Source of the DNA: a virus
Taxonomy: Duplodnaviria > Heunggongvirae > Uroviricota > Caudoviricetes
IMG/VR virus record: IMGVR_UViG_2617270950_000003
Strand: one strand, 5' to 3'
Length of the DNA stretch: 17,573 nt
The notes beneath the pieces were generated by a model, which worked only from the letters and a program-made list of their open reading frames with translations, was not told where the DNA came from and searched no databases. A program made the position numbers and the translations under genes. Below, piece after piece: positions 3,094 to 17,573 of this stretch (positions are counted from its first letter, which is position 1; every line of letters begins with the position of its first letter).

Positions 3094-4143
3094 TCAAACG
3101 ATTAAATCCTGAACTTCCCTGACTGTCTGCTCAAAACGTCCGGTCTCCAGCTCAACACCAATCGCACGACGCCCCAGTGCCATCGCCGCTTTTACCGTTG
3201 AACCCGACCCCATGAAAAAATCCGCAACCAGATCACCAGGACGACTACTTGCGCTGATTATCTGCTGCAGCATTTCTGCCGGTTTTTCGCACGGATGTTT
3301 CCCTGGATAGTACTGCACCGGTTTATACGTCCACACATCGGTGTACGGCACCTGCGCCGTCACACCGAAATACCTCCGCAAATTTTTATATTCACTCAGC
3401 AGTTCCATATACTGCCGGTTCAGCTCACTGTATGTGCTGACCAGTTGGTAATGGGGCTTTTCCAGTTCTCCCCGCTGATGTTTCTCTTCTGCCACCCGGG
3501 CAAACAGCGACTGTAATTTCAGATAATCGCTTTCGTTCGGTAGCTGCCACTGACTGGCACTGAACCAGTGCGACACCATGTTTTTCTTTCCTGTGGCATC
3601 TGCAATCTGTTTTGCCGTTATCCCCAGGGCCGCGCGCGCATCACGAAAGTAAGAAATCAGCGGGGCCATCACATGCTGTTTCAGTGCACTGCCCTTCGCC
3701 GCATACCCGGCATCTTTCGGACGATACGGCCCCTGATAATGTTCCGCGAACAGAATGCGCTCTGTGGCGGGGAAATACGCCCGCAGGCTTTCCTTGTTGC
3801 ATCCGTTCCAGCGTCCGGACGGCTTCGCCCAGATAATATGGTTCAGCACACTGAAGCGTTCACGCATCATGATTTCGATATCAGATGCCCGGCGATGACC
3901 ACAGAACAGGTAAAGACTTCCGGCAGGTTTCAGCACCCGCCAGAACTGCGCCAGACACTGGTCCAGCCACTTCAGGTAATCATCGTCGCCCTTCCACTGG
4001 TTATCCCAGCCTTCAGGCTTCACTTTAAAGTACGGCGGGTCCGTGACTATCAGGTCAACAGAATTTTCGGGTAACGACCGGATAAATTCCAGGCAGTCGG
4101 CGTTGATTAACTCACAACTGGATATTTTTACAGTATTAAGCAT
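3094..4143 (-). CDS. DNA N6-adenine methyltransferase (beta-class: DPPY motif IV precedes FxGxG motif I), apparently orphan
   Basis: 349-aa ORF with N-terminal LIVTDPPYF and C-terminal DFFMGSGST. No adjacent restriction endonuclease candidate. Confidence 0.8.
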   Translation of the reverse strand: MLNTVKISSCELINADCLEFIRSLPENSVDLIVTDPPYFKVKPEGWDNQWKGDDDYLKWLDQCLAQFWRVLKPAGSLYLFCGHRRASDIEIMMRERFSVLNHIIWAKPSGRWNGCNKESLRAYFPATERILFAEHYQGPYRPKDAGYAAKGSALKQHVMAPLISYFRDARAALGITAKQIADATGKKNMVSHWFSASQWQLPNESDYLKLQSLFARVAEEKHQRGELEKPHYQLVSTYSELNRQYMELLSEYKNLRRYFGVTAQVPYTDVWTYKPVQYYPGKHPCEKPAEMLQQIISASSRPGDLVADFFMGSGSTVKAAMALGRRAIGVELETGRFEQTVREVQDLIV

Positions 4144-4706: not shown

Positions 4707-5087
4707 TTACTTTTTTAGCAGCCAGTCGTCCATCTCCAGTCTTACCCCCAGCACAGACAAACATCCGTCAATAAACCCTTCGGCTATCTGCATCTCAATT
4801 CGTATTGCTTTTTCGCTTTTCTTTCTCGTCCTGGCTATCTGTCTTTTTGATATTCGCAACAAATAATGAGCAATGAGAAGCGAATACTCCTCAGGTTTTT
4901 TCTGCTTCAGACGAGCAAGACAGTTTTCAATGATAAGTCCGTCATCATCGCAGCAGGCCGGACGTGGTTTAGTGGCAGATGGTAAAAGTCCTTTGAATCC
5001 GGCAGCGATCGGAGAATAGTCCACCCCGGTGTTACCACTTGCAGCCCATGCCCCCCAGCGTTCAAGAACCATCTGAATATCACGCAT
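4707..5087 (-). CDS. Q: late-gene antiterminator Q-like protein
   Basis: 126 aa from ATG at 5087 (MRDIQMVLERWGAWAASG...) with a GGAGAAA SD-like sequence. Recognised from memory as the small Q family of 21/933W-type phages. Synteny: after the replication/nin genes, before tR', tRNAs and lysis genes. Confidence 0.65.
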   Translation of the reverse strand: MRDIQMVLERWGAWAASGNTGVDYSPIAAGFKGLLPSATKPRPACCDDDGLIIENCLARLKQKKPEEYSLLIAHYLLRISKRQIARTRKKSEKAIRIEMQIAEGFIDGCLSVLGVRLEMDDWLLKK

Positions 5088-5104
5088 CAACTTTCTCCAC
5101 AAAA

Positions 5105-6124
5105 TCAGGACAGCACACCTATCGCCAGCGCGCGATCGATAAAACGAAATATCAGCTCCAGTTGGGAACCATACTTCTCTTCAAATGCCACGGTATCCGC
5201 ATGCAGTCCGTCATGGTGTTTTCTGCACAAAGGCAACACAAAAAGGTCATGCGCTTTTGTACCCATTCCACCCTGACCATGACCAATCAGGTGATGAGGA
5301 TCGTCGGCTGGCTTACCACAACATGCACACGGCTGCGTCTTAACCCAGCGCGTGTACTTTTCATTAACCCAGCGACGACGTTTTGGGCGTAACATAAAAG
5401 ACTCCGGCGACTCCGGATCCACTTTCAGCGCCAGCACCTTTTTCGCCTTATCCTGGATGATGCTGGTGGCAGGAACCGAAGGCACAAGGTCACTTTCCCG
5501 GGTGACAGACGGCACAACAGGCTTCGGTAATCTCAGTGCCTTACGGGCTGCACTTTCCGGTAAGGCATCCGCCAGGTCATTACGAACCAGCCACCAGCAC
5601 AGTTCCGGCATTGTCACAACGTGGCTGTCATCAAAACCGAGATCACGACGGACTACGGACAACACCCAGCGGGCACAGTTATCCGTTGCCATTGATTCCA
5701 GACGTTCCGTGAACTGATCGCGAAGCAGGTTATCGCAGTGCCAGCACAGACGGATTGCACCCGGAGCGTGTCGCATTGTGGTCATGTTCTCGCTGTGCCA
5801 GTCGGAATGAGGCCACTGGCAGCCTTTTTCACGAAGTAACCAGCTTTCAAGACATTCCACGCCACCAGCACGACGGATCACTGCCTCATTGCGGAACACG
5901 GCCCGAACGGCAGGATCATCCGCCAGCGGTTGTGATGCCGCCGGAACGGCACCACTGGCGAAAGATGAATAACGTTCCGGCTCAGGCTCCAACAGGACAC
6001 GCCCCTGCATAAACAGGGGCATCAGCTCTGAACCGGGCCTGAACAATACAATCCCCATACGCGGGGCAATTTCAGGGGTCAGCAGTGCTCTCACGGTCAC
6101 CTCAGCAAACGATATTGAATGCAT
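5105..6124 (-). CDS. DUF968-like (YdfU-like) Cys/His-rich prophage protein, possible nuclease
   Basis: 339-aa ORF. C-terminal block CACCGKPADDPHHLIGHGQGGMGTKAHDLFVLPLCRKHHDGLH resembles the DUF968 motif of nin-region proteins. No SD before the annotated start, so the true start may be internal. Confidence 0.5.
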   Translation of the reverse strand: MHSISFAEVTVRALLTPEIAPRMGIVLFRPGSELMPLFMQGRVLLEPEPERYSSFASGAVPAASQPLADDPAVRAVFRNEAVIRRAGGVECLESWLLREKGCQWPHSDWHSENMTTMRHAPGAIRLCWHCDNLLRDQFTERLESMATDNCARWVLSVVRRDLGFDDSHVVTMPELCWWLVRNDLADALPESAARKALRLPKPVVPSVTRESDLVPSVPATSIIQDKAKKVLALKVDPESPESFMLRPKRRRWVNEKYTRWVKTQPCACCGKPADDPHHLIGHGQGGMGTKAHDLFVLPLCRKHHDGLHADTVAFEEKYGSQLELIFRFIDRALAIGVLS

Positions 6125-12373: not shown

Positions 12374-12486
12374 CTCCTTACGGATAAATTCTTTTAAGAT
12401 TCCGCACATTCGTACTTATTGGTGCCGAACCTTCCTTCAGTTATCCTTTTGATCCCTATAAACAAAAGAACCAAAGGAGGTTCGAC

Positions 12487-12780
12487 ATGAAAGTTCAGGC
12501 CGTTGGTTTATTCTGGTTTCGCGATGCGATTCAGTATCATGAGCTCAAAAATATTTTTACTGATGCTGATGTGCTCTCCGACAGTTACACCGAGTGGAAA
12601 CACGACGCTGAAAAATTGATTAAGCGTGTCGAAAGAGGCGGGCAACGAGTTATTAAAGTTGAAGCGGATACAGCCGAGTTCATCGCTTGGTGTACAAGCG
12701 AAGGCATTGGAATCAATGCCGAAGGTAGAATGCAGTTCGCATCCTTTAAGGCTTACCAACAACTTCTCAGCGAACGCTAA
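12487..12780 (+). CDS. hypothetical protein (97 aa) encoded opposite to the early-right genes
   Basis: Consensus SD AAGGAGG 7 nt before ATG at 12487. Conflicts with a fully antisense minus-strand ORF (12508..12840, SD-like GGTGGTG); only one can be real. Confidence 0.4.
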   Translation: MKVQAVGLFWFRDAIQYHELKNIFTDADVLSDSYTEWKHDAEKLIKRVERGGQRVIKVEADTAEFIAWCTSEGIGINAEGRMQFASFKAYQQLLSER

Positions 12781-12850
12781 TGTGATCGGGGCAATCGAAA
12801 TGGTTGTCCCATCGTATTTAATAGTTATTTTTTCGCTCATATCACCACCA

Positions 12851-13060
12851 TCACTTCCCATCTTCCGTGTGCGCTAGGCTTGGGTGTGTATATGGAATGC
12901 TCGGATCCAAATGACAAAGAATGGCAACATCCTCCGGAACACCTCGCGTTTTCCACTTTCCAACACCTTGACTGCCACGAGGCCTTCCTTTCTTTGGGAA
13001 CCTGCGACCAATAGCGGCATTGGTTTTAAATTGAATTTTTAATATTTCATAAAGGGTCAT
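12851..13060 (-). CDS. possible Cro-position early regulator; small basic protein with an AT-hook-like KKGRPRGS segment
   Basis: Divergent from the CI-like gene across a 111-bp intergenic region, which is the cro position by synteny. No recognisable HTH and weak SD. Confidence 0.3.
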   Translation of the reverse strand: MTLYEILKIQFKTNAAIGRRFPKKGRPRGSQGVGKWKTRGVPEDVAILCHLDPSIPYTHPSLAHTEDGK

Positions 13061-13171
13061 TCTTTAGTCTCACACCAGATACTTTGTTATCCAACGATGT
13101 TAACCACAGGAATCCAAAGTATCAAGAAATTCTGTTACTTTAGTATCAACAGCCATGAGAGGAGAAGAAAA
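13061..13171. promoter_or_regulatory. divergent immunity-region control region (OR/PR/PRM-equivalent)
   Basis: Intergenic region between divergent regulator genes. Two direct AGTATCAA copies (13118-13125, 13142-13149). Strong SD GAGAGGAG before the CI-like ATG. Confidence 0.5.
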
Positions 13172-13828
13172 ATGAAGTCTTTAGGTGAACGTCTCATCAA
13201 CGCACGGCAAAAAGCTGGGTTAACACAAGATGCGTTGGCTAAAAAAGCTGGGATCACCAGAGTTGCAATCAGTAAAGCCGAGCAAGGCCTTACAAAAAGT
13301 TTCAACGGTGACACCCTTTTTAAAGTTGCAGCTGCACTGCGGTGTTCACCGCAGTGGATTCAGAACGGAGATGAAAAAGATAAGCATTGGGAAAATAATG
13401 TTAAGAGCTGCCCACAGAGAGACACAGCACACTCTTACCCTGTAATTAACTGGGTTCAGGCAGGATTATTCGCAACTTCTGGTGATGACTACAACATGTA
13501 TGATCAGGATAATTGGAGGCATTCTGTAAAATACGCTGGTGAGAGGGGGTTCTGGCTGGAAGTGCACGGAGACTCAATGACTTCGCCCGTAGGAATAACA
13601 TTTCCTGAAGGAATGTCGATCCTTGTCAACCCAGATAAAGAAGTTTTTTCAGGGTGTTACGTCATCGCCAGAAAAAAATCTACCAATGAAGCAACATTCA
13701 AAAAATATATTTCTGACATGGGAAAGGCGTTTCTAAAGCCCCTTAATCCACAATATCCAATCATAGAAATGGACAATGATTGCGAAATAGTAGGTGTTGT
13801 GGTTGATGCCAGGTGGGATATTTTCTGA
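13172..13828 (+). CDS. cI: CI-like prophage repressor (N-terminal HTH, C-terminal S24/LexA-type autopeptidase)
   Basis: 218 aa from ATG at 13172. HTH LTQDALAKKAGITRVAISKAEQG, candidate Ala-Gly cleavage site (VQAGLF), Ser nucleophile in GDSM, and downstream Lys residues. Confidence 0.85.
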   Translation: MKSLGERLINARQKAGLTQDALAKKAGITRVAISKAEQGLTKSFNGDTLFKVAAALRCSPQWIQNGDEKDKHWENNVKSCPQRDTAHSYPVINWVQAGLFATSGDDYNMYDQDNWRHSVKYAGERGFWLEVHGDSMTSPVGITFPEGMSILVNPDKEVFSGCYVIARKKSTNEATFKKYISDMGKAFLKPLNPQYPIIEMDNDCEIVGVVVDARWDIF

Positions 13829-13856
13829 CCAGACACAAAACACAAAAAGAAACCAA

Positions 13857-13927
13857 AGTATCAAAAATCACTTGCCACACCTTGATACCTTAGTTACCAT
13901 AAAACAAAGTTCGTAACTGAGGTATCA
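13857..13927. promoter_or_regulatory. operator-like GTATCA repeats between the CI-like gene and the downstream operon
   Basis: Inverted repeat AGTATCAA-N17-TTGATACC (13857-13889) plus GGTATCA at 13921-13927, immediately before ATG 13932. Same heptamer as in the cI upstream region. Confidence 0.45.
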
Positions 13928-13931
13928 TCTC

Positions 13932-14348
13932 ATGATCAATAAAGCTACAACTCTTGACTGTCTCGAAGAACTGAAAAACCTCGGCAGCCTCATTACACTA
14001 ATAGCAAAAGCAACACCTGATGCTACGCTCTCTAGCGATATAGAGTCATGCGCAGGACTGGCATGGGATATGACAAATAGCATATCCAGAAAGCTATCGT
14101 CAGCAATGCTTTTACAGAACAAAAATTCTGCAATCAACAACCGTCTTCGCACCCAACGCGAAGCCTGCGGCTTAACAACCGCCGAACTCGCCAGGCTGCT
14201 CGATCTCGATGAAGAAATTATCATCCAGTGGGAGAGCGGAGAGTGTGAACCAACTATCAGTATGCTTATCCCACTGGCAAATATTCTTGGCTGCGATCCG
14301 ATGTGGCTGTTAACTGGTAAACCAACAGGTGGGGATACTTGCGCATGA
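13932..14348 (+). CDS. hypothetical regulator (138 aa): unknown N-terminal domain plus C-terminal XRE-type HTH
   Basis: C-terminal LRTQREACGLTTAELARLLDLDEEIIIQWESGECEPTISMLIPLANILGCDPMWLLTG is HTH_XRE-like. Occupies the slot directly after cI. AT-rich codon usage. Confidence 0.6.
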   Translation: MINKATTLDCLEELKNLGSLITLIAKATPDATLSSDIESCAGLAWDMTNSISRKLSSAMLLQNKNSAINNRLRTQREACGLTTAELARLLDLDEEIIIQWESGECEPTISMLIPLANILGCDPMWLLTGKPTGGDTCA

Positions 14349-14587
14349 AAAACTGTGATGCTTACCATATTTGTCTCATTGGTGAATTGCTTGATTTCAT
14401 ACAAAAAAGCACTGCGCACAATAATAAAAATATAACATATGGTGATCTGGTAATAATTTCAGAGGATATAAAGAGCATCGCTCTTAAATTCAAGAGCGAC
14501 GCGAGTATTGATGACGCTATTTACGCTTATCTTGCGAAAATAATTGACGGATCCAAAATCCAGCCTCTGGATGAACCTCGTCAGTGA
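14345..14587 (+). CDS. hypothetical small acidic protein (80 aa), coupled to the upstream HTH gene
   Basis: ATGA start/stop overlap at 14345-14348. Very AT-rich codons. No family recognised. Confidence 0.5.
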   Translation: MKNCDAYHICLIGELLDFIQKSTAHNNKNITYGDLVIISEDIKSIALKFKSDASIDDAIYAYLAKIIDGSKIQPLDEPRQ

Positions 14588-14744
14588 AAAACTCCTTTGA
14601 TGAAGATGAGAACTGCTTCATTAACTTTACTTTATCTTCAGGTGAAACTACCTGACGAATTAATGCGGAGATAGCAACTTTGTGCCAAATTAATTCTTTT
14701 TTGAGTTCTGAAATCTCTTTTTCGAGTTGCTCTGCGTTAATCAT
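14517..14744 (-). CDS. hypothetical coiled-coil protein (75 aa), convergent with the cI-proximal operon
   Basis: Strong SD GGAGG 7 nt before ATG at 14744. Overlaps the 3' end of the 80-aa gene by about 70 nt on the opposite strand. Confidence 0.5.
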   Translation of the reverse strand: MINAEQLEKEISELKKELIWHKVAISALIRQVVSPEDKVKLMKQFSSSSKEFFTDEVHPEAGFWIRQLFSQDKRK

Positions 14745-14923
14745 TTATCCTCCATTGAGAGCTGAATTGAAAATGGGGACCAACACGCGGCTACGTGTGG
14801 TCGTGCGCCGGACACGGATAAGCATCCGGTAACTGATTATCAATCATTGCGGAAACAGTCTCAATATGAAAACACTTCTGAGACTCGCTATATAGCAGGA
14901 CATATAAGTCAGCTGAGGAAGCC
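14745..14923. promoter_or_regulatory. divergent control region (PL/OL-equivalent) with a GC-rich structured segment and a palindrome
   Basis: Intergenic between the minus 75-aa gene and the plus early-left operon. Hairpin-prone segment around 14780-14830 and inverted repeat gtctca-N15-tgagac around 14858-14884. Confidence 0.4.
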
Positions 14924-15289
14924 ATGAAAAAGTTCGAAAACATAACTGTTCTCCATGTTGATGACTTTGATTATACAAACCCGGAACTTCTCCCGGAGGT
15001 TGTAAAGGCAATAGATGTTGCCGATATAGTGATTAGAGAAAAGAGAATTGTCAAAAACAGGCTCGCATGCACTTCAGGAGCAATGACAGAAACAACCTCA
15101 CAGCAAGATAATTACGAAGGCATTTGTCTGGAGCCTGATTCATTTGCGGTAAATGTTTATCATTTATTGCATGCAACACAGGTATTACATATGTCCAGTA
15201 ATCACGAAACGAAAACACTCGGCAGCGAAATTCTGAGTTTTGCATGTGAGTATACAAAAGCTGCTGCCGAAAAAGAATTAGCGCAATAA
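14924..15289 (+). CDS. hypothetical acidic protein (121 aa), first gene of the early-left operon; not N-like
   Basis: ORF track; GAGGAAG SD-like sequence before the ATG. No Arg-rich N-terminal motif. Confidence 0.5.
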   Translation: MKKFENITVLHVDDFDYTNPELLPEVVKAIDVADIVIREKRIVKNRLACTSGAMTETTSQQDNYEGICLEPDSFAVNVYHLLHATQVLHMSSNHETKTLGSEILSFACEYTKAAAEKELAQ

Positions 15290-15367
15290 CAACAAATATG
15301 CCCTGAACGTTTATTGCGGTTTTATCGCCGGGGATTGTTACAACCTTAATCCACAGGAGGCTTTATT

Positions 15368-15481
15368 GTGACTTTTATAAAGAATATGGCATCACACAAG
15401 ACCGCCTGCCTTATTGCACAATACGGTGAAAATTACATGCATATTGCCTGCTTATTTCTGCGTAAAGCATACGGGAGATAA
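15368..15481 (+). CDS. small ORF (37 aa) not in the ORF track
   Basis: AGGAGG SD 7 nt before GTG at 15368. Stop TAA is 2 nt before the next ATG at 15484. Sequence MTFIKNMASHKTACLIAQYGENYMHIACLFLRKAYGR. Confidence 0.35.
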   Translation: MTFIKNMASHKTACLIAQYGENYMHIACLFLRKAYGR

Positions 15482-15483
15482 TA

Positions 15484-15672
15484 ATGCATCAGAAAACAGC
15501 AGAACACGAACAAACCAGAATATTGCTGACCATCAAAAACGGGAAAGTAATATTCATTCGCCATGTTCATGACGATGAACTTGTAGGAACTCTTTCAACA
15601 TTCCTGTTTATTGCAGAAAAGGCAGGATATGACGTTATTGCACCAGCAGATGAAGATGAAGATGAGGAATAA
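15484..15672 (+). CDS. hypothetical small protein (62 aa) with acidic C-terminal tail (DEDEDEE)
   Basis: ORF track; tight spacing to flanking genes. Confidence 0.5.
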   Translation: MHQKTAEHEQTRILLTIKNGKVIFIRHVHDDELVGTLSTFLFIAEKAGYDVIAPADEDEDEE

Positions 15673-15677
15673 ATATC

Positions 15678-16259
15678 ATGCAATACGATGAATTCCAGGC
15701 TGAAGCAACAGCCAATGGTATACGAACTGGCAGTATGACGATTGATTATCACGACGCCATACGTCGTCTGGATGCCGGAGAATTCGATACTCCTAATGTG
15801 CGAGGTTTACGTATCCTTCAGTGTCTGGCGCAAGCCGACGAAGCAGGATTACTGGGTAAACTTCCGGTTGAGATGAAGGTTGCTCAGTGGCGATGGTTGT
15901 ATGTGACGACATTCATCAACGAAGAAGAAGACAAGAACGGCACAATTGATATCCTGAATGAACACGGAACAACTGAACACGCCGTGGTATATAACGGGAT
16001 GTATGGGTTTATGACGATATATCCCGGCCCCATTCGATTTGCCTTACAACAGTATATTGAATGGAATTTAATTCAAAAATACGGCGAAGCTGAAGGAATG
16101 GGAAGAGCGCTGTTTCTTTATCAGAAAATGCTCACTACTTCCCCTGATAAAGGTTTCATTCTTTCAGATATGGGTCGAGAAGGGCTTGAAATCCTTCTGG
16201 ATGAAATTATTAACGAAATGAATACTCATGGCATGCAATCCGAAACAGATATTAAGTAA
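15678..16259 (+). CDS. hypothetical protein (193 aa)
   Basis: ORF track; GAGGAA SD before the ATG. No family recognised. Confidence 0.55.
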   Translation: MQYDEFQAEATANGIRTGSMTIDYHDAIRRLDAGEFDTPNVRGLRILQCLAQADEAGLLGKLPVEMKVAQWRWLYVTTFINEEEDKNGTIDILNEHGTTEHAVVYNGMYGFMTIYPGPIRFALQQYIEWNLIQKYGEAEGMGRALFLYQKMLTTSPDKGFILSDMGREGLEILLDEIINEMNTHGMQSETDIK

Positions 16260-16269
16260 AAGGGACCAC

Positions 16270-16518
16270 ATGACCGTTATCGAGTATATCCAGGAAAATC
16301 CAGATTGCAGTAGAGAAGATATATCCCTCGCACTTGGAAGAAGCGCAACTTCTATCAGTAATGAATTATCACGGTTATTGTGGAATGGGTTAATAGTACG
16401 AACTGGAGAAAAAAACAAAATGATTCTGTACTGCGTAAACAATCTGCCGTTTGGATACAGCAATCCCCTAAGTGTTATGTTCAACCAGTTACTTAAACAG
16501 GTAAGAAATGGCAACTGA
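16270..16518 (+). CDS. hypothetical small protein (82 aa), possible winged-helix DNA binding
   Basis: Internal ATG at 16270 with AAGGGA SD. Segment DISLALGRSATSISNELSRLLWNGLIVR looks HTH-like by eye. Confidence 0.5.
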   Translation: MTVIEYIQENPDCSREDISLALGRSATSISNELSRLLWNGLIVRTGEKNKMILYCVNNLPFGYSNPLSVMFNQLLKQVRNGN

Positions 16519-16825
16519 CTCACAACTAACCATAGAAACGGCCCTGAATGTCGGCCTGGCGCTCCTTGGTTATTTTTACATCGTGTTCTGCAGCGGACGG
16601 TGGCTGTCGCTGTTGTTCCTGAAAAAATGGAATAAACGCCGTAAGCAGGATGAACGCCAGAAGGCAATGAATGCGTTTTCCGAAGCCTTCGGAATTGACG
16701 GCATGGAACCAGGGGATCCAGCTCGCGCAATCAGCAGAGGGGGTGTAGTAATCCTTGTATATCGGAGTGAAGAGAAAAATGACGATCACAAAACAACGAG
16801 TAGAAAAAATCATATATCGCCATGA
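16508..16825 (+). CDS. hypothetical membrane protein (105 aa, one predicted TM helix)
   Basis: Hydrophobic segment ALNVGLALLGYFYIVFCSGRWLSLLFL followed by a basic stretch. Start overlaps the upstream stop. Confidence 0.45.
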   Translation: MATDSQLTIETALNVGLALLGYFYIVFCSGRWLSLLFLKKWNKRRKQDERQKAMNAFSEAFGIDGMEPGDPARAISRGGVVILVYRSEEKNDDHKTTSRKNHISP

Positions 16826-17093
16826 AATGGGACTGAACAGCGATGTCACTGCCGAAGAGGTTTATGACCTGGCTGTACTGGCGCTGAATTTATCAAATAT
16901 CGCAAACCTGAAGCGATACGAGCTTGATATGGATGGTTGCGACTCGTGCGGTCAGGATTGTGGCGCAGATATGACTGAAGATCCTGATGGTGATTATGTC
17001 CTGTTTGATGACGTGGTTAAGTTGTTTGAATTTGATACAACCACTCAAAAGTTAGAAATCCCGGCAAAGGAGGCTGCCAGTGAGCAAGATTGA
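16779..17093 (+). CDS. hypothetical acidic protein (104 aa) with a CDSCGQDCG Cys cluster
   Basis: Internal ATG at 16779 with a GGAGTGAAGAG SD-like sequence. Confidence 0.5.
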   Translation: MTITKQRVEKIIYRHEMGLNSDVTAEEVYDLAVLALNLSNIANLKRYELDMDGCDSCGQDCGADMTEDPDGDYVLFDDVVKLFEFDTTTQKLEIPAKEAASEQD

Positions 17094-17265
17094 CTATCAG
17101 GCACTGCGCGAGGCGGCGGAACAGGCAACGCAAGATGAATGGGTAGCATATATTTTGCCGGGTCATAACGGCATTTATCCTGCGCGCACGTTTGAGGGTA
17201 GGCATTGTGCGGATACTTTATTGACTGGCCTGGCGTCTGTCAGGGGCGGGAGAGCATCAACATGA
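17080..17265 (+). CDS. hypothetical small protein (61 aa)
   Basis: GTG start at 17080 preceded by AAGGAGG. Stop overlaps the next ATG in an ATGA arrangement. Confidence 0.5.
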   Translation: MSKIDYQALREAAEQATQDEWVAYILPGHNGIYPARTFEGRHCADTLLTGLASVRGGRAST

Positions 17266-17573
17266 GCATCAGAACCTACGCAGTGAATTGCAATGACGCA
17301 TGGCTAAACACCGAAGGTGATGACATCTCCGGCTCATACGTTAAGTACAAAGACCATCAGGAAGTGGTTGCCGCTCTTGAGGCCAAGTGCGCGGCGCTGG
17401 CAGCGGAGAATGCGGGAATAAAGTCTGCAATTCCAGAATCACGGGATATTGAAGATGACAATGACAATATGGATGACGTATCTCTCGCGGAAGACTTCGG
17501 GTTCAATCATGCAATAGAACGGATGAGGAGACAGATACCTGAAACGCCAACCACTGATGCTTTCCTGGCTGAA
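17262..17573 (+). CDS. hypothetical protein, 5' partial (open to the window end)
   Basis: ATG at 17262 in an ATGA overlap with the upstream stop. The frame stays open for 104 codons to position 17573. Confidence 0.5.
   Translation, partial: MSIRTYAVNCNDAWLNTEGDDISGSYVKYKDHQEVVAALEAKCAALAAENAGIKSAIPESRDIEDDNDNMDDVSLAEDFGFNHAIERMRRQIPETPTTDAFLAE

Follow-up and report, generated by a model that had tools for sequence, protein, structure and literature searches.

The DNA analysed here, a window of 17,573 nucleotides (nt) from a Caudoviricetes record (IMGVR_UViG_2617270950_000003), carries at positions 14924-17573 a block of small, plus-strand genes. This block is probably the middle of the early-left operon, that is, the operon read from the leftward promoter pL, of a phiP27-like lambdoid prophage, and should correspond to the non-essential accessory region of that operon. 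The block is real, ordinary and widely distributed, and it has been sequenced before, in phiP27; its genes are small and real. The preliminary description, made from the letters of the sequence, had already recognized an early-left block of small and tightly packed genes, and this assignment is borne out. Nine open reading frames (ORFs), here named p1 to p9, occupy the block:

14924-15289, plus strand: p1, 121 amino acids, phiP27 L08 (phrog_5451, 1.7e-83)
15368-15481, plus strand: p2, 37 amino acids, with a GTG start and an AGGAGG Shine-Dalgarno sequence, absent from the RefSeq annotation
15484-15672, plus strand: p3, 62 amino acids, with an acidic tail (phrog_340, 3e-22)
15678-16259, plus strand: p4, 193 amino acids, phiP27 L06 (phrog_1515)
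16270-16518, plus strand: p5, 82 amino acids, a winged helix (phrog_1687, 'MarR family', 1.3e-24), absent from the RefSeq annotation
16508-16825, plus strand: p6, 105 amino acids, DUF4752 (PF15944, 7.2e-37, 125.8 bits against a cut-off of 27)
16779-17093, plus strand: p7, 104 amino acids, acidic (phrog_3126, 3.7e-64)
17080-17265, plus strand: p8, 61 amino acids, Ead_Ea22 (PF13935, profile positions 1-45, 54.5 bits against a cut-off of 27)
17262 to beyond 17573, plus strand: p9, Ead_Ea22 (PF13935, profile positions 48-136, 43.1 bits)

Seven of the nine ORFs behave as separate genes. The other two, p8 and p9, are one Ead/Ea22 gene (17080-17573, plus strand), frameshifted and running off the window, because they match successive parts of the Ead_Ea22 profile (E-values of 2e-14 and 8e-11) and because a 2-nt TG insertion at about 17206 becomes apparent on alignment to an intact allele of 228 amino acids. 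The earlier count of at least nine consecutive genes therefore held for the ORFs and their positions but not for the last pair. The ATGA-type overlaps were not confirmed either, as the only ATGA within 14924-17573 is the p8/p9 frameshift junction; elsewhere, neighbouring ORFs are set apart by spacers of 2-78 nt or overlap by 11-47 nt. Likewise, the proteins were said to belong to no placeable family, whereas p6 and p8/p9 have the Pfam matches given above and every ORF but p2 matches a PHROG family, these being families of unlabelled function apart from the named ones. The acidic character of several products was described correctly, with isoelectric points (pI) of 4.1-5.0 for p1, p3, p4, p7 and p9.

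The region 14500-17573 matches a prophage of Escherichia coli BEC1-S17-ESBL-09 over its full length at 99.3% identity, prophages in many further E. coli strains match from 14837 onward at 99.6-99.8% identity, and at least part of the region is present in 1,782 of 5,426 complete E. coli genomes (about a third). In the full-length relative (the BEC1 prophage, L001), the same strand continues with further small genes, an excisionase gene (xis) and an integrase gene (int), beyond which lie a frameshifted DUF72 gene (yecE) and then yecN. Among sequenced phages, PhiR49_2 of ECOR13, phiP27, ASU11 and several Stx1a/Stx2a phages come closest, and the eleven plus-strand proteins from the upstream regulator to p9 all have 100% matches in a single IMG/VR viral contig. 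Because of the identity to E. coli prophages and of the closest sequenced phages, phiP27 among them, the window is assigned to a phiP27-like lambdoid prophage of the yecE-integrating type. Beyond this comparison, L001 holds at 65-1914 a DUF262 protein and a HEPN-like nuclease adjoining its DNA methyltransferase and Q genes, possibly a defence insertion; the window appears to be without this pair, because no long plus-strand ORF is found at the position of the DUF262 gene.

The phiP27 genome was reportedly described by Recktenwald and Schmidt in 2002 (NC_003356). Its early-left region (ORFs L03-L10) is directly homologous to this one, with amino acid identities of 97% between L10 and the regulator, 96% between L08 and p1, 70% between an unannotated ORF of 37 amino acids and p2, 49% between L07 and p3, and 65% between L06 and p4. 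The order of the cro-like gene, cI and the regulator is the same as in the window, and the phiP27 integrase gene, of 1,314 nt, has the same length as the integrase gene beside yecE/yecN in L001. Unlike the window, phiP27 lacks p5-p9 and carries L05, L04 and L03 instead, and compared with the window its antisense ORF, L09, carries a frameshift. The block is thus not new, being also present in such inducible phages as PhiR49_2, ASU11 and many Shiga-toxin (Stx) phages in addition to phiP27, which was sequenced in 2002.

The arrangement across relatives was followed in 80 viral loci, the best 80 matches found through p4, a set biased toward close relatives for that reason. Here p1, in full or as its C-terminal domain only, was followed by p2, p3 and p4 in the same order in all 80 loci, and the regulator lay upstream in 77 of them, the remaining three contigs ending before its position. 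By comparison, p5 was present in 55 of the 80 loci, while each of p6-p9 was rarer still and their combinations differed between loci. These patterns show that the regulator and p1-p4 form a fixed core and that p5-p9 are a swappable cassette; accordingly, with p1-p4 constant and p5-p9 variable across loci, the block 14924-17573 joins a fixed core to a variable cassette. In the most distant relative examined, p2-, p3- and p4-like genes are present but separated by other genes.

It could be argued that much of the block is a decaying prophage of pseudogenes and chance ORFs, in line with the frameshift of the Ea22-like gene in the window, the frameshift of p5 in the closest full-length relative, the existence of frameshifted p4 variants in databases and the omission of p2 and p5 by RefSeq. 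We consider this very improbable, as the ratio of nonsynonymous to synonymous variation (pN/pS) in comparison with diverged relatives for p2, p3, p4, p5 (from the ATG at 16270) and p6 was 0.18-0.46 in frame and about 0.6-5 in the other two frames, which points to purifying selection on p2-p6 in the called frame. Moreover, the same genes occur in the inducible, sequenced phages phiP27, PhiR49_2, ASU11 and the Stx phages, and gene order is kept in 80 of the 80 viral loci. Both p2 and p5 are conserved and intact in the relative L007 (at 4032-4142 and 4934-5179, respectively) but unannotated in the RefSeq records examined, L007 included, whereas the phage records of PhiR49_2 and Stx1_14040 annotate both.

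The start of the operon could be placed by operator-like repeats and by a regulator gene upstream of p1, among the following features:

12851-13060, minus strand: cro-like gene
13172-13828: LexA-like cI gene
13849-13926, plus strand: putative oL/pL, with repeats at 13849, 13884 and 13913 around a promoter-like site
13932-14348, plus strand: XRE-type helix-turn-helix (HTH) regulator of 138 amino acids (phiP27 L10), the predicted first early-left gene

A 14-nt repeat, GATAC-N4-KWWWC, occurs in six copies in the 17.5-kb window and nowhere else in it. Three copies lie at about 13078-13147, between the divergent cro-like and LexA-like cI genes, and three form a second cluster (13849-13926) that directly follows cI, surrounds the promoter-like site TTGCCA-17-TACCAT at 13872-13900 and ends 6 nt before the start of the regulator. 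Shuffled sequence gave a mean of 0.6 matches to the pattern, but the pattern was derived from these same six sites and the count is therefore descriptive. The two clusters flanking cI define the putative oR and oL, and a pL under CI control is suggested by the recurrence of the repeat in both places, with three sites between cro and cI and three where the leftward operon begins. A relative with a different cI and immunity type has the same layout with another repeat, ATCAA-N6-CTTGA.

The regulator matched HTH_3 (1.3e-9) and phrog_4739 (5e-84), its PHROG placement being phrog_4739 or the 'CII-like regulator' family phrog_4836, and its closest solved relatives are the DNA-binding domains of P22 C2 and of the 434 repressor. 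It is acidic (pI 4.5). The HTH domain is nearly invariant in seven loci, whereas the N-terminal domains, of which three types were found among the regulators, and the tails vary. The order of cro-like gene, cI, regulator and p1 or its short form was found in nine of nine relatives compared, and only 5 nt separate the regulator stop from the short form of p1 in Stx phages. As the operator repeats precede the regulator and the order from regulator to p1 is constant in relatives, the gene at 14924 is not the first of the early-left operon, contrary to the preliminary description; the XRE regulator at 13932, about 1 kb earlier, would take that place. The pL-proximal regulator is a double-HTH protein, with its two domains in tandem, in Stx phages and in some further relatives (L004 3830-4480, L005 3752-4480, L009 4084-4872). 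Atypical 'CI' proteins in which a second HTH domain replaces the peptidase domain ('Clade VIII CI') have been described from Stx phage regulatory regions (PMC8951638), and the double-HTH forms may be these proteins.

Between the regulator and p1, the window contains two further genes and a conserved leader:

14345-14587, plus strand: ORF of 80 amino acids (phrog_23054), overlapping the regulator by ATGA, absent from the RefSeq annotation
14517-14744, minus strand: antisense gene of 75 amino acids (phrog_20080, 2.6e-46)
14838-14923, plus strand: leader of p1, ultra-conserved, with an inverted repeat at 14857-14885

The ORF of 80 amino acids matched phrog_23054 at 1e-55, had a pN/pS of 0.36 in frame and 0.7-1.6 off frame against phiP27, and was present in 8 of the 80 viral loci. 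Its 3′ end overlaps that of the antisense gene by 71 nt. The antisense gene has a promoter-like site at 14864-14836 on the minus strand (10 of 12 consensus positions), a minus-strand leader with unusually good folding (z = -3.3) and a terminator-like hairpin with a 12-bp stem at 14502-14475. Among phage records, it was found only in phiP27, in the frameshifted form, and it is annotated in L001 too. The 490-nt stretch ahead of 14837 is missing from other relatives, in which homology starts at 14837. The antisense gene with its surrounding stretch looks like a moron-like insert that interrupts the operon, and it may be expressed in the lysogen.

Downstream of this insert, the sequence from 14838 to about 14960 is nearly invariant in six loci, and this extends to a relative with a p1 of only 45% identity. 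The inverted repeat AGTCTCA-N15-TGAGACT (14857-14885) is unique in the window, was matched in none of 200 shuffles, and was present in every checked locus with the p1 of 121 amino acids and absent where the form of 66 amino acids directly follows the regulator. As RNA it could form a hairpin with a 7-bp stem and a 15-nt loop, with no boxA and no match in Rfam. Both variable positions of the repeat are A-to-G changes that keep the pairing as G-U on the plus-strand RNA and break the symmetry of the DNA, which favours a transcribed hairpin rather than an operator, although very few events are involved. The block 14838-14960 could serve as a hairpin-bearing regulatory leader or mark a joint at which modules have recombined.

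No match to N, to the recombination proteins Exo, Bet, Gam, Erf or RecT/RecE, or to Kil was found in Pfam and PHROGs for the ORFs from the regulator to the end of the window, nor to N, recombination or Kil families in NCBIfam and PADLOC for the nine ORFs. For these nine, similarity to Kil-type proteins (lambda Kil, Rac KilR, DicB) was likewise missing from all four libraries. In L001, the genes between the position of the window end and xis matched only PHROGs of unknown function, and RefSeq names no N, recombination or Kil gene among them. The absence of these functions noted by the preliminary description thus holds as far as xis. Its further statement that the first gene is not an Arg-rich N-type antiterminator is also true, of both the regulator and p1 (p1 has a pI of 5.0, 11 Lys and Arg residues in 121 and no Arg-rich motif), so that no small, basic, Arg-rich protein was found first after pL; only the gene it took as first was not the first. 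A search of Rfam with E-values up to 1 over 12400-17573 returned one match, at chance level. Between pL and int, the plus strand has no predicted strong intrinsic terminator, and an N-type antiterminator may therefore not be needed.

The closest analogue of the block is the exo-xis region of lambda and the 'ea' region of P22 (orf60a, orf61, orf63, orf73, ea8.5, ea22), in which small, non-essential genes are likewise expressed early from pL before xis-int and a gene of the Ead/Ea22 family is found, as in the window. Ead/Ea22 aside, the families of the window ORFs match no named early-left function of lambda or P22, and N, cIII, kil, gam, bet and exo are all missing ahead of the block, which directly follows the XRE regulator. 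Lambda N with its nut sites resembles the window only in position, as the first gene after pL, and the first gene of the window encodes an acidic HTH protein. The comparison with characterized early-left operons that had been proposed earlier thus yielded a homologue, phiP27 L06-L10, and an analogue, the exo-xis and ea regions. Genes of the exo-xis region are known for early expression and for effects on lysogenization and induction, and homologues of Ea22 shift lambda and Stx phages toward lysogeny (PMC7093339, PMC10834534, PMC3824215).

On the reading preferred here, cleavage of CI would release pL, and one transcript would run from the regulator over the antisense insert and the hairpin-containing leader to p1-p9 and on to xis-int, with no N-type antiterminator required and with translation coupled through short spacers and overlaps. 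The products could, speculatively, act as small modulators and not as enzymes. As it carries a regulator-type N-terminal hairpin without a DNA-binding domain, p1 could titrate the regulator or modify it, p5 might act as a bare winged helix and p6 as a small membrane protein. Their collective role, still speculative, would most likely be the tuning of the lysis-lysogeny decision and of the physiology of the host soon after induction or infection, perhaps together with counter-defence.

Several observations weigh against this reading. The putative pL is a consensus match only (9 of 12 positions), and promoter-like sites in total are no more numerous than in shuffled sequences. The 336-nt stretch between the regulator pair and p1 holds the antisense gene with promoter-like and terminator-like sites of its own, and read-through over this stretch is assumed. 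A weak promoter-like site found by eye, ATGAAA-17-TATATA at 14866-14894, could start p1 separately. In several loci, the window included, the type of regulator-like domain in p1 does not match the type of N-terminal domain in the regulator of the same phage, which also weakens the idea of titration by p1. Finally, the functions of p1-p7 were assigned neither by any library, nor by the sequence search against solved structures (with p1, p3, p4, p5, p6 and p7, which found nothing), nor by the fold search (with p1 and p4 only).

Some of these points would suit a different arrangement, in which p1-p9 form a separately controlled operon that starts from the ATGAAA-17-TATATA promoter within 14838-14923, with the inverted repeat as an operator for the regulator or p5 and with this second regulatory tier replacing N. 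The near invariance of 14838-14923 at p1 identities as low as 45%, the uniqueness of the repeat in the window, the back-to-back minus-strand site at 14864-14836 and the near invariance of the regulator HTH domain across phages would all be in keeping with it. Nevertheless, the repeat is absent from Stx phages with the same regulator HTH and travels with the N-domain block of p1, on which ground binding of the regulator HTH to this repeat was given up as the leading idea. The two repeat variants, as described, preserve the RNA pairing rather than the DNA symmetry, the plus-strand promoter fails the scan criteria, and half-sites 22 bp apart from centre to centre would be unusual for a dimeric HTH protein. 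We therefore regard a separate operon as rather unlikely, and transcription of p1-p9 as part of the pL operon remains the preferred reading.

Among the genes of the fixed core, p1 was modelled by AlphaFold2 with two domains joined by a disordered linker: a small N-terminal one and a C-terminal helical hairpin, here called domain X (residues 66-121). This domain has 43% identity over 47 amino acids (E-value 9e-10) to the N-terminal domain of the PhiR49_2 regulator of 182 amino acids, and it is a stand-alone gene of 66 amino acids in Stx phages; by eye, one variant of p1 matches the second of the three types of regulator N-domain. RefSeq calls only the last 68 codons of p1. The frame of 121 amino acids is open, with a recognizable N-terminal motif, in relatives of 44-60% identity, and codons 14-50 gave no clear pN/pS signal. 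The fold comparison that the preliminary description had suggested for every protein was made with the p1 and p4 models; for p1, Foldseek found no relative among solved structures.

The 37-codon micro-ORF with a Shine-Dalgarno sequence, which had been recognized as such earlier, is a real gene. Its 37 codons, Shine-Dalgarno sequence and stop are kept in seven loci at identities down to 70%, pN/pS was 0.18-0.26 in the called frame against at least 0.8 in the others, and p2 was present in 80 of the 80 viral loci carrying p4. The product is basic (pI 9.5) and matched no family in Pfam, PHROGs, NCBIfam or PADLOC. p3, with a pN/pS of 0.39-0.46, was likewise present in all 80 viral loci and showed weak matches to the C-terminal parts of anti-repressor families in PHROGs. 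Its origin as a domain of the Rha/anti-repressor proteins of the same phage was considered and rejected, as no similarity to them was found. The model of p4 is a confident one (predicted local distance difference test, 87.5; predicted template modelling score, 0.84), but neither the solved nor the predicted viral structures include a convincing relative. An exhaustive profile search for p4 gave only about 100 clusters of stand-alone proteins, and six longer members of the family that were scanned had no informative extra domain.

The preliminary description named early-left operons as a place of host-takeover and anti-restriction functions, and one possibility is that the block, and especially the invariant trio p2-p3-p4, is a counter-defence or host-takeover module of small inhibitors of host immunity or division that are expressed first after induction. 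The position, the small, acidic and fast-evolving proteins, the confident p4 model with no relative in the libraries of solved and viral structures, and the swappable distal cassette, which is typical of accessory islands, would fit such a role. Yet no ORF matched a known defence or anti-defence family, PADLOC returning only generic winged-helix similarity for p5, and a core that is invariant across differing immunity and replication modules would fit regulation internal to the phage at least equally well, making a counter-defence or host-takeover module fairly improbable. It is more doubtful still that in phiP27-like phages the regulator and p1-p4 constitute a hitherto undescribed module for early decision or takeover, standing in for N, cIII and kil of lambda, in which p1 would be an HTH-less decoy or partner of the regulator and p4, with its orphan fold, would act together with p2 and the acidic p3 on a host target.

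The swappable cassette begins with p5. The PHROG match agrees with the winged-helix-like protein of 82 amino acids proposed earlier, although in Pfam it stayed below the cut-offs for both MarR_2 (22.9 bits against 27) and MarR (14.3 against 24.6). The start at ATG 16270 is backed by a pN/pS of 0.27 for codons 15-96 of the longer ORF against 2.9 for codons 1-14, and these 14 extra codons evolve as part of the p4 frame. The winged helix-turn-helix of p5 resembles the DNA-binding core of MarR transcription factors. Typical MarR proteins have about 140-150 amino acids, with N- and C-terminal dimerization helices, for which p5, with only 82, has no room. The next protein, p6, aligned over residues 8-90 to positions 2-84 of the 84 in the DUF4752 profile, which makes it a full-length member, and the RefSeq name for the identical protein is DUF4752 as well. 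It has a single hydrophobic segment (residues 12-30), consistent with the single transmembrane segment predicted before, and a pN/pS of 0.18. A literature search for DUF4752 and six RefSeq protein accessions found no paper.

For p7, 244 homologues were found in Escherichia and Salmonella phages. Its earlier designation as a Cys-cluster protein could not be upheld: among 16 homologues, C54 and C61 are conserved and C57 is often Phe, and a zinc-binding role was dropped with the CxxC motif not being conserved. At the end of the cassette, a single intact Ead/Ea22 frame with N-terminal, coiled-coil and C-terminal parts was not found, the C-terminus lying outside the window. In O55:H7 RM12579 the split allele appears as two annotated genes, and a shorter, intact-length allele was found in six of eight records sampled from 130 matching ones. 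For the Ea22 segment 17165-17250, 67 of the 135 match places in E. coli, about half, lie on plasmids close to 90 kb in size, which are probably phage-plasmids. Several relatives carry in the variable part of the operon a Band_7 (SPFH) gene of about 275 amino acids (L008 5003-5830, L009 6693-7523). Two similarly placed genes of 828 nt, L05 ('lipoprotein') of phiP27 and a 'serine protease' gene of Stx2_14040, have the same length.

Taken as the middle of a pL operon, the block belongs to an operon with a start that is moved upstream to the regulator, and its two 'Ea22' ORFs are merged into one broken gene. It includes two conserved genes, p2 (37 amino acids) and p5 (82 amino acids), that were missed by RefSeq annotation, and a five-gene fixed core that can be distinguished from a swappable cassette. 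The leads that we retain are the invariant core of the regulator and p1-p4 and the domain common to p1 and the regulators. The core is found in many Shiga-toxin phages without homologues of N, cII and cIII, and its role would bear on the choice between lysogeny and toxin-releasing induction.

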